DNA of 57,816 nt. Source: Candidatus Brennerbacteria bacterium. GTDB lineage: Bacteria > Patescibacteriota > Minisyncoccia > UBA6257 > GWB1-50-10. The DNA is taken from assembly GCA_043799565.1 (NCBI GenBank), contig JAZDNP010000004.1, forward strand, positions 1-57,816, given 5' to 3'. Shown one piece after another: positions 2,742-23,797 of this stretch; the stretch's first letter is position 1, and each line of letters starts with the position of its first letter. The translations under genes were made by a program, and so were the position numbers. Below the pieces are notes generated by a model, which ran no database searches, was not told the DNA's origin, and worked only from the letters and a program-made list of their open reading frames with translations.

Positions 2742-4178
2742 ATGACGGAGAAACGACCTCCCGTTGTGGCGATCTTGGGACACGTAGACCATGGGAAAAC
2801 CACTCTCCTCGACTTCATCCGTAAGGCGAACGTAGCGGCACGGGAGGCGGGCGGCATCACCCAGTCGGTCGGTGCTTACGAAATCGCCCACAACGGCAAA
2901 AAGATAACGTTCATTGATACGCCCGGCCACGAGGCGTTTTCCTCTATGCGGAGTCACGGCGCAAAAGTGGCCGATCTTTGCGTCCTTGTGGTTGCGGCGG
3001 ACGACGGTGTGAGGCCGCAAACGAAGGACGCACTCTCCGCGATTACTGTGGCCGAGACGCCCTACATCATCGCGGTGAATAAAGTGGACAAGCCGAGCGC
3101 GAACGTGGAAAAGGTGAAACAGGAACTCTCGGCCAATGGCGTGCAGTTGGAGGGGTACGGAGGTTCCGTTACCTGGCAGGCGGTATCAGCAAAGACCGGT
3201 GAGGGGGTTTCCGAGCTTTTGGACCTCATTCTTCTCGCTACGGACATGCTAGATCTCACATGGGACAAAAGTGCGCCTGCGTCTGGCATCGTGCTCTCAA
3301 GCCGGATTGATGCGCGCCGCGGGGTGTTGGTCGGCGTGGTGTTGAAGAATGGCGTGCTCGCGCAGGGAGAACTTATCACCACCGAAACCGCGAAGGGGAA
3401 GGTGAAGGCATTTGAGGATTTTATGGGGAAGCGCGTGAAAGAATTGTCACCTTCCGCCCCCGCGCTTATTGGCGGTTTTGAAACGGCACCCCAAGTCGGC
3501 GAAGTATTCGTTGCGGGAAGCGGTGCGGGAGCAGGTGAGCTCTATAAAGGAGCGTTGCCCGCAAAAGTTCAGCTTCGCGCAGGCGAAATATCTGCGAAAG
3601 TTGCGGAAGGAATGCCGCTGATTTTGAAGGCCGACGAATCCGGTTCACTGGAAGCGCTCGTGGCGGTGGTCCAAAAAATATCCCGTGAATTTCCTTGCCG
3701 CATCGTGGAGAAAAGCGTGGGCAATATCTATGAAGGCGACGTGAAGTTGGCGGAGAGCACGGGGGCGACCATTCTTGGGTTTGGTATCAAAGCGGACCGC
3801 GCGGCGGAAAATCTTGCGGAAGGGAAGAAAGTGATGATTGAGATCGCTACGATCATTTACGAACTTGAGAAATTCCTGCGCGAGCGGCTCGTCGGCGAGA
3901 AGAAAGAGGAGCTCGCAAAACTTGAGATACTCGCGGTATTTGGGGTTGGCAAGGGCGAAGAACAGATTGTGGGTGGTCGCATCGCAGAAGGGACGGTGAA
4001 GAACCGCACGCTTTTTACGGTGCTTCGGGGTGGGCGGAAGGTGGGCGAGGGGCAGGTTACAAACCTTCAATCCAAGAAAAAGAACGTATCCGAGGCGGGC
4101 GCGGGAATTGAAGTGGGACTTTTGGTTGAAAGCTCTGCAACTATTGAAAAAGGCGATGTGTTGAACTTCGCTTCATAA
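2742..4178 (+). CDS. infB: translation initiation factor IF-2 (short form, starts directly at the G domain)
   Basis: GHVDHGKTTLLD, DTPGHEAF and NKVD GTPase motifs. 478 aa. Followed by rbfA as in the canonical operon. Confidence 0.9.
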   Translation: MTEKRPPVVAILGHVDHGKTTLLDFIRKANVAAREAGGITQSVGAYEIAHNGKKITFIDTPGHEAFSSMRSHGAKVADLCVLVVAADDGVRPQTKDALSAITVAETPYIIAVNKVDKPSANVEKVKQELSANGVQLEGYGGSVTWQAVSAKTGEGVSELLDLILLATDMLDLTWDKSAPASGIVLSSRIDARRGVLVGVVLKNGVLAQGELITTETAKGKVKAFEDFMGKRVKELSPSAPALIGGFETAPQVGEVFVAGSGAGAGELYKGALPAKVQLRAGEISAKVAEGMPLILKADESGSLEALVAVVQKISREFPCRIVEKSVGNIYEGDVKLAESTGATILGFGIKADRAAENLAEGKKVMIEIATIIYELEKFLRERLVGEKKEELAKLEILAVFGVGKGEEQIVGGRIAEGTVKNRTLFTVLRGGRKVGEGQVTNLQSKKKNVSEAGAGIEVGLLVESSATIEKGDVLNFAS

Positions 4179-4564: not shown

Positions 4565-5299
4565 GTGGGGATTAAATACCACGTGGACGAAAAATTCTTT
4601 GACGGATGGAGTCCTATCATGGCCTACGTGTTGGGGTATTTCTATGCCGATGGGAGTATGTATCCGTCTGTACGAGGCAAATACATCGTGGTAACGAGTA
4701 TAGATCGCTCTACTATCTTGAAGATCAAAAAATGGCTCCACTCCCATCATACGGTCCGTGAAGAATCTTCGACATGGGCGAACGGCAAGAAACGATACAT
4801 ACTCAGGATAGGAAACGCCGCGCTTTATGAGGCATTGAAGTTGCGCGGACTTTACCCAAACAAATCCCTTACCATTAAAATACCGACTATTCCACGTAAA
4901 TTTCTAAAAGACTTCGTTCGAGGTTATTTCGATGGCGATGGATGCGTATACTTGTACCGATCAGCTGGAATTTCTCAACTGCTAATTCTTCGTAAGCTCT
5001 CGATCATATTTACGAGCGGAAGCAAACGTTTTCTCATAGGATTACTCGCACAATTAAAGAAAGAATTGCCATTAAACCAGAAAAACATTTATCGGGGGCA
5101 ACGATCGTTTCAGCTCCGGTTGTCCACCGGAGATAGCGTGTCGCTGTTCAAGTTTATGTATGGAGGGGTTAAATCCGATGTATTCCTCCGGAGAAAATAC
5201 GATACGTTTTCCAGATATTTTAAATTGCGACCACAGCGGATTGATGGGGAGGTGAAAGCCGTACTACAATTCATAGGCAATGGCCACGTGGCGAAGTAG
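4565..5299 (+). CDS. LAGLIDADG homing endonuclease, double-motif, free-standing
   Basis: Two motifs: YVLGYFYADGSMY and FVRGYFDGDGCVY. By eye more A/T-rich than its neighbours. The last 18 nt overlap tRNA-Cys. Confidence 0.85.
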   Translation: MGIKYHVDEKFFDGWSPIMAYVLGYFYADGSMYPSVRGKYIVVTSIDRSTILKIKKWLHSHHTVREESSTWANGKKRYILRIGNAALYEALKLRGLYPNKSLTIKIPTIPRKFLKDFVRGYFDGDGCVYLYRSAGISQLLILRKLSIIFTSGSKRFLIGLLAQLKKELPLNQKNIYRGQRSFQLRLSTGDSVSLFKFMYGGVKSDVFLRRKYDTFSRYFKLRPQRIDGEVKAVLQFIGNGHVAK

Positions 5300-5354
5300 C
5301 AAACGCGGCGGTCTGCAAAACCGCTATTCATGGGTGCAAATCCCATCGTGGCCT
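5282..5354 (+). tRNA. tRNA-Cys(GCA)
   Basis: Acceptor GGCCACG/CGTGGCC, anticodon arm GCGGT-CTGCAAA-ACCGC, discriminator T. T-loop is TGCAAAT (G at position 55). Confidence 0.85.
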
Positions 5355-5359
5355 CAAAT

Positions 5360-5557
5360 ATGAAATTCCCACCGAAAAAGAAGGATGCGTATATTCTCGA
5401 TAATACACAGGACAGAAGAATATTTCGGAAGCTGGGAAAGTTTAAATTTCACAAACTCTCTCTAAGAGAAGAGGAACTTATAAAGTTTTTATACTCTCAA
5501 CTTGAACGTGATTGGCGTACACCTCTTGAGAAATTTATCAATAACTTGCTAAAGTAA
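5360..5557 (+). CDS. small hypothetical protein (65 aa, basic, A/T-rich gene)
   Basis: ORF in the track trimmed to the ATG at 5360 (MKFPPKKKDAY...). Lies between tRNA-Cys and tRNA-Leu. No family recognised. Confidence 0.4.
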   Translation: MKFPPKKKDAYILDNTQDRRIFRKLGKFKFHKLSLREEELIKFLYSQLERDWRTPLEKFINNLLK

Positions 5558-5563
5558 GCACGG

Positions 5564-5646
5564 GTCCGGGTGGCGGAATGGTTTACGCAGGGGACTTAAA
5601 ATCCCTGACCCGAAAGGGTTTGTGGGTTCGACTCCCACCCCGGACA
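5564..5646 (+). tRNA. tRNA-Leu(TAA)
   Basis: GTCCGGGTGGCGGAATGG..., anticodon arm GGGGA-CTTAAAA-TCCCT, long variable arm, T-arm GTGGG-TTCGACT-CCCAC. Confidence 0.9.
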
Positions 5647-5689
5647 CAAAAGTTTGAAGATTTTTTTTCTGTGGGGTAGCATATCATGC

Positions 5690-5881
5690 ATGCAGGGAAA
5701 GGTAATCACTGCACTCGTGGGGCTCTTGATAATTGCGGTTCTTTTGTATGTACTGCTCTCCTCGCTCGCGCCCATCGGCCGTAGCCCGGCAACTGGCGAG
5801 GTGGAGGGAATCAGCGCTCCCCGCGGACCGGTAGGGGATCCGTTTGTGAATGGCCCTATCCCTCCTCCGCCGGAAAATTAA
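5690..5881 (+). CDS. small hypothetical membrane protein
   Basis: ATG-trimmed ORF MQGKVITALVGLLIIAVLLYVLLSSL... with one TM helix and a Pro-rich tail. Confidence 0.4.
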   Translation: MQGKVITALVGLLIIAVLLYVLLSSLAPIGRSPATGEVEGISAPRGPVGDPFVNGPIPPPPEN

Positions 5882-5885
5882 GAAT

Positions 5886-5974
5886 GCGGCCATGGTTCCC
5901 GCCCAAAACGAAGTATTGTGGCGGGTCCGCCTGAATGTCCGCCTTCGGCGGCTTTCGGCGGATAGTGGCAGGAT
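5886..5974 (+). pseudogene. orphan 5' part of tRNA-Gly (nt 1-12 and 13-24) split by a 65-nt hairpin-rich insert
   Basis: GCGGCCATGGTT (5886-5897) equals 6251-6262. TAGTGGCAGGAT (5963-5974) matches 6263-6274 at 11/12. The two blocks are contiguous in the intact tRNA. Confidence 0.75.
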
Positions 5975-5983
5975 GAACTAATA

Positions 5984-6265
5984 ATGTTTTACACGTACGT
6001 TTTGCTATGTGAAGACAGCGCGCGAGGTCGGCGAAAACTTTATGTCGGTTCGACCGATGATTTACACGCCCGTCTCCGAGAACATGAATCGGGGAATGTG
6101 AAAACTACAAAAAGCTTTAGCAAGGTATCGTTAGTGTATTATGAGGCATGCAGGAACAAAAAGGACGCAAAAAAGCGGGAGCTGCAGTTGAAAACAGGCT
6201 TTGGAAGGGGTTACATTAAGAAGCGGATAGAAAGTGACTTAGATAAAGAAGCGGCCATGGTTTAG
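5984..6265 (+). CDS. small GIY-YIG nuclease family protein (93 aa)
   Basis: FYTYVLLC...KLYVGSTDDLHARLREH...YYEAC...KRELQLK pattern (GIY / YIG / Arg / Glu). The last 5 codons overlap the tRNA-Gly 5' end. Confidence 0.85.
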   Translation: MFYTYVLLCEDSARGRRKLYVGSTDDLHARLREHESGNVKTTKSFSKVSLVYYEACRNKKDAKKRELQLKTGFGRGYIKKRIESDLDKEAAMV

Positions 6266-6321
6266 TGGCAGAATACGACCTTGCCAAGGTTGAGACTCGG
6301 GTTCGATTCCCGATGGCCGCA
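6251..6321 (+). tRNA. tRNA-Gly(GCC)
   Basis: GCGGCCATGGTTTAGTGGCAGAATA-CGACC-TTGCCAA-GGTTG, T-arm TCGGG-TTCGATT-CCCGA, acceptor TGGCCGC. Confidence 0.9.
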
Positions 6322-6375
6322 CAAAGCAAAAACTACCAGAAAGGGTACTATAATTAATTATAGTACCCTTTCTGG

Positions 6376-7554
6376 TTACGATATCCTAACCTTTACGAAT
6401 TTTTTCTTCCCTATCTTTAATATGTCGCCATCCCGAATCTCTATCTTTGGGTCGCGTGCCGTTTCACCATTTCGCTTAATTGCACTTTGTGAGAAGAGGC
6501 GTACGGCTTCACTGTTGGAACCCACGCCGGCTGCACGGACGGCCTCCAAGAGTGTCGCACCCTGTTTCACCTTTACCGTATCAACATTGTTCGGCGTTTC
6601 TTTTTTTGAGAACGTTCGTATCCACTCCTCGCGTGCCTTCGCGGCGGCTTTCTGATTGTGATAAAGCTTCACCACTTCGTACGCGAGCGAAAGCTTCGCG
6701 TCGCGCGGATTGCCGTCCCGCTCCATCATTTTTTCAATGTCTTCTATCGCCATCTCGGTGCAAAATTCTGCAACTGGCCTGATTCCTTCATCGGGGAGCG
6801 CCATCAATTTACCGAACATATCATTTGGCTTGTCGTCCAAGCTGATGAGCCCACCCTCACTCTTGTTCATAAGTTTCTTTCCCGTCCTCGGATTTTCCAA
6901 AAGCTTGGTAGTGACAACGAATTTTTCCTTGTTTTTGTATTCACGGAGGAGCTTGCGTCCGGCGAGCATATTGAAGGTTTGGTCGGTGCCGCCAATTTCC
7001 ACGTCCACGTCAAGCGCGACGGAATCGTACCCTTGCATCAAGGGATATAGGAATTCGTGGAGACCGATGGGCTTATCGTTTCTTTTTCTCTCTTGGAACA
7101 TGTCCCGCTCCACCATTTGCTGCTCGGTGAAGTGTGAAGCGAGTTCAATAAGTTTCTCAAACGTCATCTTCGCGTGCCATTTGGAGTTGAATGCGAGTTT
7201 TGCGGCGTTGGTCCCCGAAAAGTTAATTATTTTCGCTGCCTGCTTTTTAAACGTCTTGAGGTTTTGCTTTACCTCGCTTGCGGTGAGCGGCTTGCGTGCC
7301 GCAAGTTTGTCGGTAGGGTCGCCGATGCGTGCGGTGAAGTCGCCGATGAGGAGAATAACTTTATGTCCAAGCGCCTGGAATCTCCGGAGCACGAGAAGGT
7401 TTGTCGCGTGGCCCAAGTGGAGGTGGGGGCCGGTCGGGTCCACACCGAGGTAGACAGTCAGTTTTTTTCCCGACGAGAGCGCTTTTTCAAACGCCTCGCG
7501 CGAAGGGTATATGGTATCAACCGAACGAGTCAGAAGATTGTTGAGCGCGTCCAT
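6376..7554 (-). CDS. tyrS: tyrosyl-tRNA synthetase
   Basis: HLHLGH (HIGH) and KMNKS (KMSKS) motifs. GDFTARIGDPTDK. C-terminal S4-like region. Start trimmed to the ATG at 7554, because the track start at 7584 is TTG. Confidence 0.85.
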   Translation of the reverse strand: MDALNNLLTRSVDTIYPSREAFEKALSSGKKLTVYLGVDPTGPHLHLGHATNLLVLRRFQALGHKVILLIGDFTARIGDPTDKLAARKPLTASEVKQNLKTFKKQAAKIINFSGTNAAKLAFNSKWHAKMTFEKLIELASHFTEQQMVERDMFQERKRNDKPIGLHEFLYPLMQGYDSVALDVDVEIGGTDQTFNMLAGRKLLREYKNKEKFVVTTKLLENPRTGKKLMNKSEGGLISLDDKPNDMFGKLMALPDEGIRPVAEFCTEMAIEDIEKMMERDGNPRDAKLSLAYEVVKLYHNQKAAAKAREEWIRTFSKKETPNNVDTVKVKQGATLLEAVRAAGVGSNSEAVRLFSQSAIKRNGETARDPKIEIRDGDILKIGKKKFVKVRIS

Positions 7555-23512: not shown

Positions 23513-23797
23513 ATGAATCCCGTTAGAGACAACAAAACTTATTATGTTTACGTCTTGCGTAGCACTAAAGATAAACGCTGGTATACTGGACTTACCGATG
23601 ACCTACGGAAGCGCTTCAAGGAACACAATGCCGGACATGTTGGGTGGACAAACGGACGTGGCCCATTCGAGCTCATCTACTACGAAATGTGTAAAAACAT
23701 CACTGATGCAAGGTCGCGAGAGAAGTATTTCAAATCAGGCATGGGCAAGCGCTACTTGAAGAATCGCTTGAAGCGCTTCCTGTCTCTAACGGGATGA
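23513..23797 (+). CDS. GIY-YIG nuclease family protein (94 aa)
   Basis: MNPVRDNKTYYVYVLRS...RWYTGLTDDLRKRFKEH...YYEMC...REKYFK. Start ATG lies in the left arm. Stop TGA overlaps the pilC ATG (ATGA). The track start at 23495 overlaps pilT and is rejected. Confidence 0.85.
   Translation: MNPVRDNKTYYVYVLRSTKDKRWYTGLTDDLRKRFKEHNAGHVGWTNGRGPFELIYYEMCKNITDARSREKYFKSGMGKRYLKNRLKRFLSLTG

Follow-up and report, generated by a model that had tools for sequence, protein, structure and literature searches.

Endonuclease open reading frames (ORFs) that invade a gene and repair what they interrupt are known from fungal mitochondria, where mORF elements occupy atp6 of Allomyces macrogynus, atp6, atp9, cox2, and nad3 of Glomus, atp9 of Rhizopus, and cox2 of Mortierella (PMC3630166). 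The mORFs bring a replacement C-terminus for atp6, atp9, cox2, or nad3, and the native C-terminus is left behind as a relic (PMC3630166). Here we describe a bacterial locus of comparable logic, which lies in a stretch of 57,816 nucleotides (nt) from Candidatus Brennerbacteria bacterium (assembly GCA_043799565.1, contig JAZDNP010000004.1, positions 1 to 57,816 of the forward strand); this whole stretch is referred to as the window. At this locus, a GIY-YIG nuclease ORF runs into the 5' end of a transfer RNA (tRNA) gene, tRNA-Gly(GCC), and is preceded by a second, partial copy of the same gene, termed the orphan, which is split by a double-hairpin module, termed M. Based on comparisons with related loci, we read this arrangement as a compact, selfish, homing-like mobile cassette that breaks and restores a tRNA gene, and we assign a probability of roughly 0.6 to this reading.

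Further described systems share single aspects with the locus. The mitochondria of Allomyces reportedly contain short, G+C-rich double-hairpin elements, which are optional between relatives, are presumed to be mobile, and occur close to mobile endonuclease ORFs. PMC7218506 cites Paquin, Laforest and Lang (2000) for these elements. T4-like phages encode the GIY-YIG homing enzyme SegB within a tRNA gene cluster (PMC2330249, PMC13096335). In bacteria of the Candidate Phyla Radiation (CPR), GIY-YIG ORFs occur in non-intron insertions of ribosomal RNA (rRNA) genes and were judged to be sparse and not spread by homing (PMC11270868). In Caldiarchaeum, a 5' fragment of tRNA-Thr lies next to a recombinase element (PMC3293823).

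Results

Organization of the tRNA-Gly locus

A preliminary description of the window had proposed that a GIY-YIG cassette is inserted in tRNA-Gly and that the 5' part of the tRNA is duplicated in such a way that an intact gene is regenerated. All components of this proposal were found at their positions (Table 1): the 24-nt 5' part recurs upstream as two 12-nt pieces, a hairpin-rich insert of 65 nt comprising two hairpins separates these pieces, the GIY-YIG ORF of 93 amino acids (aa) lies between the orphan and the intact tRNA, and the last codons of the ORF are the tRNA 5' end. The breakpoint has to be placed differently, as it is marked by M between tRNA nt 12 and 13 here and does not lie at nt 24. 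ARAGORN and Rfam agreed in the tRNA calls of the window.

Table 1. Coordinates of the tRNA-Gly cassette and of its immediate surroundings in the window.
Feature	Position	Strand	Remarks
tRNA-Leu(TAA)	5564..5647	+	Upstream neighbour; ARAGORN/Rfam
Small membrane-protein ORF (MQGKVITALVGLL...)	5690..5881	+	Also conserved in L082, whose site is empty; borders the insertion on the left
Orphan tRNA-Gly nt 1-12	5886..5897	+	Exact copy (12/12); GCGGCCATGGTT
Double-hairpin module M, 65 nt	5898..5962		Hairpin 1, 5898-5925; hairpin 2, 5926-5962
Orphan tRNA-Gly nt 13-24	5963..5974	+	TAGTGGCAGGAT vs TAGTGGCAGAAT (6263-6274); 11/12 match
Linker, 9 nt	5975..5983	+	GAACTAATA; spacer between orphan and start codon
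Stand-alone GIY-YIG nuclease ORF, 93 aa	5984..6265	+	UPF0213-like; Pfam PF01541, E 1e-13
Intact, functional-looking tRNA-Gly(GCC)	6251..6322	+	ARAGORN, Rfam; differs by 2 nt from the tRNA of the empty site in L082
19-bp perfect palindrome ACCAGAAAGGGTACTATAATTAATTATAGTACCCTTTCTGGT	6335..6376		Between tRNA-Gly and the convergent tyrS; right-hand context, outside the element

The orphan starts 4 nt past the stop codon of a small membrane-protein ORF, which matches the position of the tRNA start in L082, a relative with an empty site that is described below. Its first piece occurs exactly twice in the window when both strands are searched, namely in the orphan and at 6251-6262. M sits cleanly between the two orphan pieces and without target duplication. 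It consists of hairpin 1 (CCCGCC..GGCGGG) and hairpin 2 (TCCGCC..GGCGGA, with an inner CCGCC-TTCG-GGCGG), occurs as a single copy in the window, and has folding z-scores of -3.9 with DNA parameters and -2.2 with RNA parameters. The sole mismatch of the second orphan piece, an A-to-G exchange at 5972, yields the sequence AGGA 10 nt before the ATG, which is a possible Shine-Dalgarno (SD) site. The final five codons of the ORF, GCG GCC ATG GTT TAG, are tRNA nt 1-15, with the stop codon at nt 13-15. The cassette closes with a complete tRNA-Gly, whose first 15 nt also code for the nuclease C-terminus including the stop; the tRNA thus stays functional although the gene has been invaded.

Between the repeats, the GIY-YIG gene is the only ORF with a family match, and no recombinase is present between or beside them. 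This bears on the question of whether the repeats could be of the att type, left by an integrase-driven integrative element or representing its remnant. The insert is indeed flanked by direct repeats of a tRNA segment, and there is an archaeal precedent, in which a recombinase-bearing element is preceded by a 5' tRNA fragment (PMC3293823). However, the repeat-bounded segment of 365 nt codes for the GIY-YIG ORF only, the same minimal content is found in about 70 loci, and a search of IMG/VR viral contigs yielded no relatives, so that we regard an origin from integrase-driven integration as highly improbable. Carriage by phages was dismissed on the same IMG/VR result.

Several other candidates were considered for the locus and rejected. 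An Rfam search over 5500-6400 at E values up to 1 returned just the two tRNAs and an antisense chance match; a group I intron and a riboswitch were therefore discarded. A group I intron would, in addition, interrupt the tRNA, whereas the functional tRNA is continuous. For the window, a three-way junction with the tRNA D-stem as closing helix was predicted, and this helix, GCCAU/GUGGC, looks fortuitous. A potential tRNA promoter inside the 3' end of the ORF (TTGAAA-18-TACATT, 6188-6217) was dropped, as the Leu-Lys codons that form its -35 region vary freely among relatives. The palindrome downstream of tRNA-Gly looks like a two-way terminator.

Nuclease ORFs and orphans at tRNA genes of other CPR bacteria

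The nuclease has at least 752 relatives, all of them from Patescibacteria where the source was named. When the GTDB species genomes (one per species) were scanned for relatives of the nuclease ORF, we obtained 426 loci that are spread across many CPR phyla, and the best 80 of these Patescibacteria loci were examined. The preliminary description had suggested searching for further GIY-YIG ORFs that overlap tRNA 5' ends, and such ORFs were abundant: among the 77 evaluable ORFs of the best 80 loci, 65 have a tRNA on the same strand that starts between -50 and +14 nt from the end of the stop codon. The offset is -9 in 40 loci, in which the stop codon TAG corresponds to tRNA nt 8-10, and -14, as in the window, in 7 loci. 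The nearby tRNA is tRNA-Gly in 62 of 71 cases (anticodon CCC in 51, TCC in 9, and GCC in 2), and more distant members of the family are found at tRNA-Asn, Val, Thr, Glu, Gln, and Asp. The C-termini of many homologues can be read as translated tRNA 5' ends, for example AGMV, AGLV, AGVVQW, or R-D/V/E plus the stop after a codon with a final G.

To detect orphans, the 260 nt ahead of each ORF were compared with the resident tRNA by spliced alignment, with at least one long gap allowed and a cut-off score of 28. Scores of at least 28 were obtained in 45 of 67 loci, compared with none of 67 reverse-complement, none of 67 shuffled, and none of 62 far-upstream controls, and the upstream match of the window is thus reproduced elsewhere at a level above every control. 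About 15 loci carry exact copies of tRNA nt 1-34, which begin the upstream arrangement 100-160 nt ahead of the ATG. After M, the orphan resumes for just 5-16 nt, and the ATG follows 5-15 nt further on.

It was in principle conceivable that the upstream matches in the window arose by chance or by a one-off slippage duplication and that the overlap of ORF and tRNA is accidental. The small size of the repeats would be compatible with such an origin. Already in the window, however, a chance match is very improbable because two ordered matches (12/12 and 11/12) lie within 100 nt upstream of the ORF, and the recurrence of the arrangement in dozens of independent loci and never in controls refutes the idea, the probability of which we regard as practically negligible.

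Empty sites and sporadic distribution

An uninterrupted site, for which the preliminary description had proposed to look in relatives, was found in L082, the closest usable relative, whose tyrosyl-tRNA synthetase (TyrRS) is 78% identical. In L082, the end of tRNA-Leu is followed by a small membrane ORF homologous to that of the window, 16 nt, and an intact tRNA-Gly(GCC), and the locus contains no orphan, hairpins, or GIY-YIG ORF. In comparison, the window has about 365 extra nt. Two other relatives, L081 (TyrRS 84% identical) and L083 (67%), have no tRNA-Gly near tyrS and are hence uninformative on the site. Judged by where the relatives of its TyrRS and of its GIY-YIG protein come from, the organism behind the window belongs to the Patescibacteria (CPR).

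A metagenome scan with a degenerate 24-nt pattern that represents the first 24 nt of the tRNA-Gly type of the window gave 80 loci, and the sequence upstream was long enough for an evaluation in 70 of them; a 40-nt tRNA pattern had no matches in the metagenome DNA scan. The site was empty in 66 of the 70 loci and filled in 4, and the latter contain more distant GIY-YIG ORFs (31-41% identical) in the same plan. The distribution is thus sporadic, as expected for a mobile element and not for a housekeeping gene. One of the 66 empty loci, L152, has a lone double-hairpin module 42-97 nt upstream of tRNA-Gly, with no ORF and no clear orphan, and probably represents a cassette that has decayed.

Other GIY-YIG subfamilies (31-41% identical) at tRNA-Gly(GCC) were seen in L108, L121, L097, and L163. 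In L108 and L121, orphan nt 1-23 and then a single hairpin, CCCCGATGGCCATCGGGG, are found at a tRNA-Gly(GCC) of the window type, and L108 carries the orphan-plus-hairpin arrangement on both sides of the ORF. The GIY-YIG ORFs of L097 and L163 end with NNAAMV*, as in the window, and are accompanied only by a degenerate orphan and no module.

The nuclease consists of a GIY-YIG domain

The 93-aa protein matches PF01541 with 51.7 bits, above the curated cut-off of 22.6. Residues Y5, Y20, G22, R30, H34, and E66 are invariant in 26 aligned relatives, and we take them to be the GIY, YIG, Arg, His, and Glu catalytic positions of I-TevI. AlphaFold2 (AF2) generated a model with a pLDDT (predicted local distance difference test) score of 84 and the topology E-E-H-E-H-H, i.e., a three-stranded sheet with flanking helices. 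The top PDB fold matches of this model were 1ZG2, 7WME, 1LN0, 7CQ2, 4XLG, and 1YD6, all with modest scores, and the best fold matches comprise UPF0213, the catalytic domain of At-HIGLE, the catalytic domain of I-TevI, Slx1, and the N-terminal domain of UvrC. Enzymes that cut branched DNA (Slx1 and HIGLE) are therefore among the nearest folds. The only PDB sequence matches were the UPF0213 proteins BH0048 (1ZG2) and EF2693 (1YWL), which are weak (E 0.004 and 0.009, respectively), and no NCBIfam family scored above its cut-off.

According to the AF2 model, the protein is composed of the catalytic domain and one helix, which leaves no room for a DNA-binding domain. As, in addition, the group I intron endonuclease family TIGR01453 (215 positions) reached 19 bits compared with a cut-off of 56, the protein is not a classical homing endonuclease.

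Breakpoints coincide with a conserved double hairpin

In every case with a recognisable orphan, the gap of the orphan is occupied by M, a module of 54-70 nt that forms two helices and has the consensus TCCGCCAAAAGC-loop-GCATTTTGGCGGA followed by CCCGCCnAAATGC-loop-GCTTTTGGCGGG. The insertion is clean, with the tRNA sequence picking up exactly where it was interrupted. In about 32 loci, M separates the second anticodon base from the third (linear nt 34/35). In about 20 loci, among them the window and the cassettes at tRNA-Asn, Val, Thr, and Glu, it is located in the D-arm or D-loop, from nt 12/13 up to about nt 22. At these four tRNAs, the D-loop breakpoints are at positions 11-22. A few loci carry M at both sites. 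A profile search that covered 81 sequences, about 430 kb of flanking DNA, and the whole window placed M 59-127 nt before the ATG in 72 of the 81 sequences and detected only two stray copies in the flanks, which means that M is part of the cassette and not a genome-wide repeat. The hairpin-rich insert noted in the preliminary description is hence present as described and, beyond that, represents a conserved module adjoining the ORF.

The helices of M were analyzed for covariation in 28 aligned copies with 21 predicted pairs, with 500 shuffles and a slid-partner control for comparison. The pairs were formed in 97.3% of the cells, and compensatory double changes occurred at 16 of the 21 pairs. 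There were 76 double-change cells, compared with 14 in the shuffles, none of which reached 76 (0/500), and with 4-8 when partners were slid. Single-side changes were almost absent, and G-U pairs made up 4 of 572 paired cells (0.7%), whereas the stems of 161 tRNAs taken from these loci contained 7.0% (binomial p 1.6e-13, which is indicative only, as the cells are not independent). Many apical loops of M read GCGAAGC or GCAAAGC, and d(GCGAAGC) is a very stable DNA mini-hairpin. The strong covariation, together with the near absence of G-U pairs, suggests that M is probably a structure acting at the DNA level, as pairing restricted to Watson-Crick pairs is expected when both strands have to fold, as in a cruciform, or when the molecule that folds is single-stranded DNA.

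A second type of hairpin, CTGCCCGCA...TGCAGGCGGGC, was seen within orphans or inside M in the upstream regions of L017, L031, L056, L072, L075, L077, and L078; in L017, it is located between tRNA nt 24 and 25.

The properties of M raise the question of whether M itself might be the primary mobile unit. The GIY-YIG protein would then be a structure-specific nuclease or transposase of a hairpin-end DNA transposon of a new kind. It would cut at extruded hairpins, namely M or, in tRNA genes that are single-stranded or form a cruciform, the D and anticodon arms. The M-bounded unit would enter tRNA loops, and the carried tRNA would serve as a repair kit that makes such hits survivable. If this were true, the dependence of the host on the tRNA copy of the element would amount to a gene-replacement addiction. 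In agreement with such a transposon, M is present at every breakpoint and lies cleanly in loops, is found in either orientation, and borders the unit on both sides in about 10 loci; its pairing is of the Watson-Crick type only, its loops resemble GCGAAGC, the nearest folds of the nuclease include the junction cutters mentioned above, and units of M and tRNA without an ORF, as well as a lone M, exist (L002, L049, and L152). On the other hand, M is not dispersed, as its single copy in the window and the two strays in the flanks demonstrate, and the cassette is always found in the cognate tRNA, which fits better to homology-guided repair. Neither target-site duplications nor excision footprints were seen, and we know of no GIY-YIG transposase. 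Weighing these points, we consider such a transposon possible, though on balance rather doubtful.

Cassettes show signs of movement and can carry complete tRNAs

Signs of movement were found in pairs of related cassettes. L012 and L014 share a block of 87.5% identity that extends exactly from orphan nt 1 to tRNA nt 72, whereas the flanking genes, although homologous, are only about 64% identical and inverted relative to the block. The tRNA-Asn cassettes of L066 and L076 are 91-95% identical and have unrelated flanks.

In about 20 loci, the orphan differs from the functional tRNA, which in these loci always has a perfect acceptor stem. The differing orphans would pair at 4-5 of 7 positions with the 3' strand of the functional tRNA, and several of them retain their own compensated D-stem. 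These orphans are best read as the 5' halves of another tRNA-Gly and not as decayed copies. In about 10 loci, further tRNA sequence lies just after the functional tRNA, namely a short piece (nt 27-34 or 3-12), another copy of M, and then the rest of a tRNA 3' part. In L016, L011, and L009, this downstream orphan and the upstream one fit each other (acceptor GCGGGAT/ATCCCGC or GCGGAAT/ATTCCGC), and the tRNA between them has a different acceptor stem. The native tRNA of these three loci reads as a gene that is split at nt 34/35 by M, an SD sequence, the ORF, a complete foreign tRNA, and M. A full-length copy therefore has the order M, SD, ORF, whole tRNA, short tRNA piece, and M between the halves of a native tRNA. 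As some loci hold native halves around an M-ORF-whole foreign tRNA-M unit, the element is able to bring along a complete spare tRNA. In the window, as in most loci, only the left half of the full-length structure is retained.

L004 (3262-3480) contains a tRNA gene within a tRNA gene and lacks M. The ORF of this locus overlaps nt 1-41 of a tRNA with the acceptor strand GCGGGAT, which is followed by 30 nt, a complete different tRNA-Gly (GCGAGCA), a further 36 nt, and the matching 3' half, nt 35-72 (..ATCCCGC). In L002 and L049, a second round of invasion has occurred into the tRNA that is overlapped by the ORF.

Some loci show additional rearrangements. In L007 (3347-3600), a unit consisting of a 12-nt linker, tRNA nt 27-34, M, and tRNA nt 35-74 is present twice in tandem after the functional tRNA; the second unit ends with a different acceptor strand and hence derives from another tRNA-Gly. 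A different insertion, at the tRNA 3' end, was observed in L014 (3317-3550) and also in L036, L056, L058, L060, and L076, where tRNA nt 52-72 are repeated 115-160 nt downstream. In L014, this repeat takes in about 26 nt beyond tRNA nt 52-72. The intervening DNA of the 3'-end insertions, about 130 nt, contains an antisense T-arm copy (e.g., ggagaatcgaa) and is tandemly repeated in L036. In L020, the functional tRNA-Gly (3275-3348) has a C2-C71 mismatch in the acceptor stem (GCGGGTA with TACCCCC), which may be a sequencing error or the trace of a hybrid tRNA.

These data also bear on the view that the locus is a vertically inherited, host-serving operon, in which a protein of repair or of tRNA/RNA metabolism is co-transcribed with tRNA-Gly, and in which orphans and hairpins are leftovers of local duplications or regulatory leader structures. 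Purifying selection on the ORF with its invariant catalytic residues, the occurrence of the arrangement across many CPR phyla, and pairs of loci that look vertical, with similar flanks (e.g., L048/L059), can be cited for such an operon, as can a prokaryotic Slx1-like domain that is fused to a TrmH tRNA methyltransferase (PMC1564403). Yet the cassette is absent from 66 of the 70 loci of the same type and from L082, orphans stem from foreign tRNAs, and native tRNAs are split around foreign ones. Moreover, cassettes are much more conserved than their flanks and can be inverted relative to them; degenerate, ORF-less, and serially invaded copies exist; and the pairing of M is DNA-like, unlike that of an RNA leader. 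We therefore regard a host-serving operon as improbable.

Other nuclease elements in the window

Besides the tRNA-Gly cassette, the window contains a LAGLIDADG ORF of 244 aa (4565-5299, + strand) that ends inside tRNA-Cys (5282-5355). Its C-terminus, ...GNGHVAK*, corresponds to tRNA-Cys nt 1-15, and the TAG to nt 16-18. Nearly all inspected members among 748 homologues end with GHVAK or GHVVK, and some read on through tRNA-Cys. The same 18-nt overlap of LAGLIDADG ORF and tRNA-Cys was seen in L084, L085, and L086, which have different neighbourhoods. As LAGLIDADG ORFs overlap tRNA-Cys in several contexts, a second nuclease family shares the habit of residing at tRNA 5' ends. No orphan or hairpin module was seen at the LAGLIDADG/tRNA-Cys locus; in a search for an orphan tRNA-Cys fragment upstream of the ORF, only the palindromic 8-mer CCACGTGG matched, within coding sequence, which we treated as chance.

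A second GIY-YIG ORF (23513-23797, + strand), which encodes a protein of 94 aa that is 40% identical to the cassette nuclease, is located between pilT-like and pilC-like genes and has a 12-nt inverted repeat, CCCGTTAGAGAC / GTCTCTAACGGG, on its flanks, with arms at 23519-23530 and 23782-23793. The starting ATGAA is repeated at the end of the ORF, so that the TGA of the ORF overlaps with the ATG that is regenerated for the downstream gene (ATGA). The preliminary description had noted that the tRNA-Gly cassette follows the same logic as this start-codon element, a comparison that is reasonable in view of the related nuclease, the regenerated ATG, and the 12-nt inverted repeats.

Discussion

A proposed homing-like cassette that breaks and restores its target

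In our preferred reading, a homing-like cassette, the mode of movement that we infer is break-and-copy. The nuclease would break DNA in or beside the tRNA gene, and repair would copy in the cassette, for which a filled allele or DNA that the cell has taken up would be the template, with the 5' part present as the orphan and the 3' part of the tRNA serving as homology arms. The host would survive, since the unit brings its own tRNA or the 5' part thereof, and may come to depend on the copy of the element. Break-and-copy movement would explain that conserved blocks have tRNA boundaries, that products with a single M and with two M copies occur, and that the cassette always lands in a cognate tRNA. 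M, as DNA, would be the probable recognition target of a structure-specific nuclease of the Slx1/HIGLE type, or it could block the recombination between direct repeats that would excise the element.

Expression would largely rely on the host gene. The ORF appears to have no promoter, start context, or stop codon of its own and would be read from the promoter of the tRNA operon through the orphan and M, as there is no room for a separate promoter between M and the ATG. A promoter-like site at 5526-5555, ahead of tRNA-Leu, is the likely transcript start. The tRNA nt that are kept after M, which are CAAGG or CAAGGAG in the anticodon class and AGGA in the window, lie 8-15 nt before the ATG and probably function as a ribosome-binding site. 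As the stop codon lies within the mature tRNA, cleavage by RNase P at tRNA +1 would remove it and give a stop-less mRNA, which is a possible brake on nuclease output.

Several points weigh against this reading. Its basis is a comparison of sequences throughout, and the fold and PDB sequence matches of the nuclease are weak (E 0.003-0.05). Sequence-specific homing as in I-TevI is unlikely, as the protein has no DNA-binding domain and the cassettes occupy several tRNAs and two breakpoint sites. The homology arms are short (12-38 nt). If the nuclease cut intact tRNA-Gly genes, the restored tRNA of a filled allele would also be a target, and no immunity feature was identified. The window itself has no downstream orphan, and its orphan is nearly identical to the functional copy, for which reason a native piece cannot be demonstrated from the window alone. 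Many orphans match their tRNA at 34 of 34 positions, which could reflect gene conversion during long vertical residence.

Implications

With the homing-like cassette, there would be a way to occupy an essential gene without an intron, intein, or integrase, because the element replaces what it breaks and borrows the promoter, the ribosome-binding site, and the stop codon from the host. In the reduced genomes of CPR bacteria, tRNA genes thus seem to be a major ground for selfish elements that has been overlooked, and many annotations of "GIY-YIG nuclease family protein" and stray tRNA fragments in these genomes would thereby be explained. tRNA genes may travel between lineages on such cassettes. 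The specificity of a very small nuclease with a defined DNA hairpin as partner might also be useful. We found no description of GIY-YIG/tRNA-Gly cassettes in CPR bacteria in the full-text literature, with non-open papers outside the scope of the search.

Comparison with known systems

The mORF elements come closest in logic. In both cases, an endonuclease ORF, which can be of the GIY-YIG or LAGLIDADG type in mORFs, resides in a host gene together with a replacement of the displaced segment, the native segment survives nearby, the inserted segment can be foreign, and close relatives vary in the presence of the element. Distinct foreign and native segments are evident in the relatives L016, L011, L009, and L004 and are not demonstrable in the window itself. 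The host is a bacterial tRNA gene here and a mitochondrial protein gene there. Furthermore, the 5' end or the whole gene is replaced in our case, with the ORF upstream, whereas mORFs replace the 3' part and have the ORF downstream, often in phase. The cassette also differs by its single-domain nuclease of 93 aa, the double hairpin at the breakpoint, and the stop codon that is borrowed from the tRNA.

Like the double-hairpin elements of Allomyces, M consists of two adjacent G+C-rich hairpins within some tens of nt, which is a likeness in structure. The elements of Allomyces exist in many dispersed copies, whereas M is essentially confined to the cassette. SegB resembles the cassette nuclease in being encoded by a GIY-YIG gene beside tRNA genes, and its activity drives the preferential inheritance of itself and of the flanking tRNA region. 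Seg proteins are much longer than 93 aa and, like I-TevI, have a C-terminal DNA-binding domain that is attached through a linker. In contrast to the cassette, seg genes lie between genes and not inside a tRNA gene, and they have no orphan, hairpin module, or overlap of ORF and tRNA. The stand-alone UPF0213/COG2827 proteins of about 90-110 aa (1ZG2, 1YWL), Slx1, and HIGLE resemble the nuclease in size and single-domain fold, with weak similarity (E 0.003-0.05), and for UPF0213 no role in mobile elements or linkage to tRNAs was found reported in searchable papers.

The insertions in CPR rRNA genes concern the same bacterial group and the same nuclease superfamily, and they likewise affect genes of structural RNAs at stem-loops without an intron ribozyme. 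They interrupt rRNA, however, and no duplicated gene segment or tRNA target has been described for them. The Caldiarchaeum case is alike in that a tRNA fragment lies beside an intact tRNA after insertion of a mobile element, yet it comprises 1.8 kb and a recombinase, compared with 365 nt, a GIY-YIG nuclease, and no recombinase here. None of the compared systems joins a bacterial tRNA target, replacement of the 5' side or of the whole gene, a nuclease that consists of its domain only, and a dedicated DNA double hairpin, and there is a reasonable chance that the mechanism of a hairpin combined with a nuclease is new in kind.

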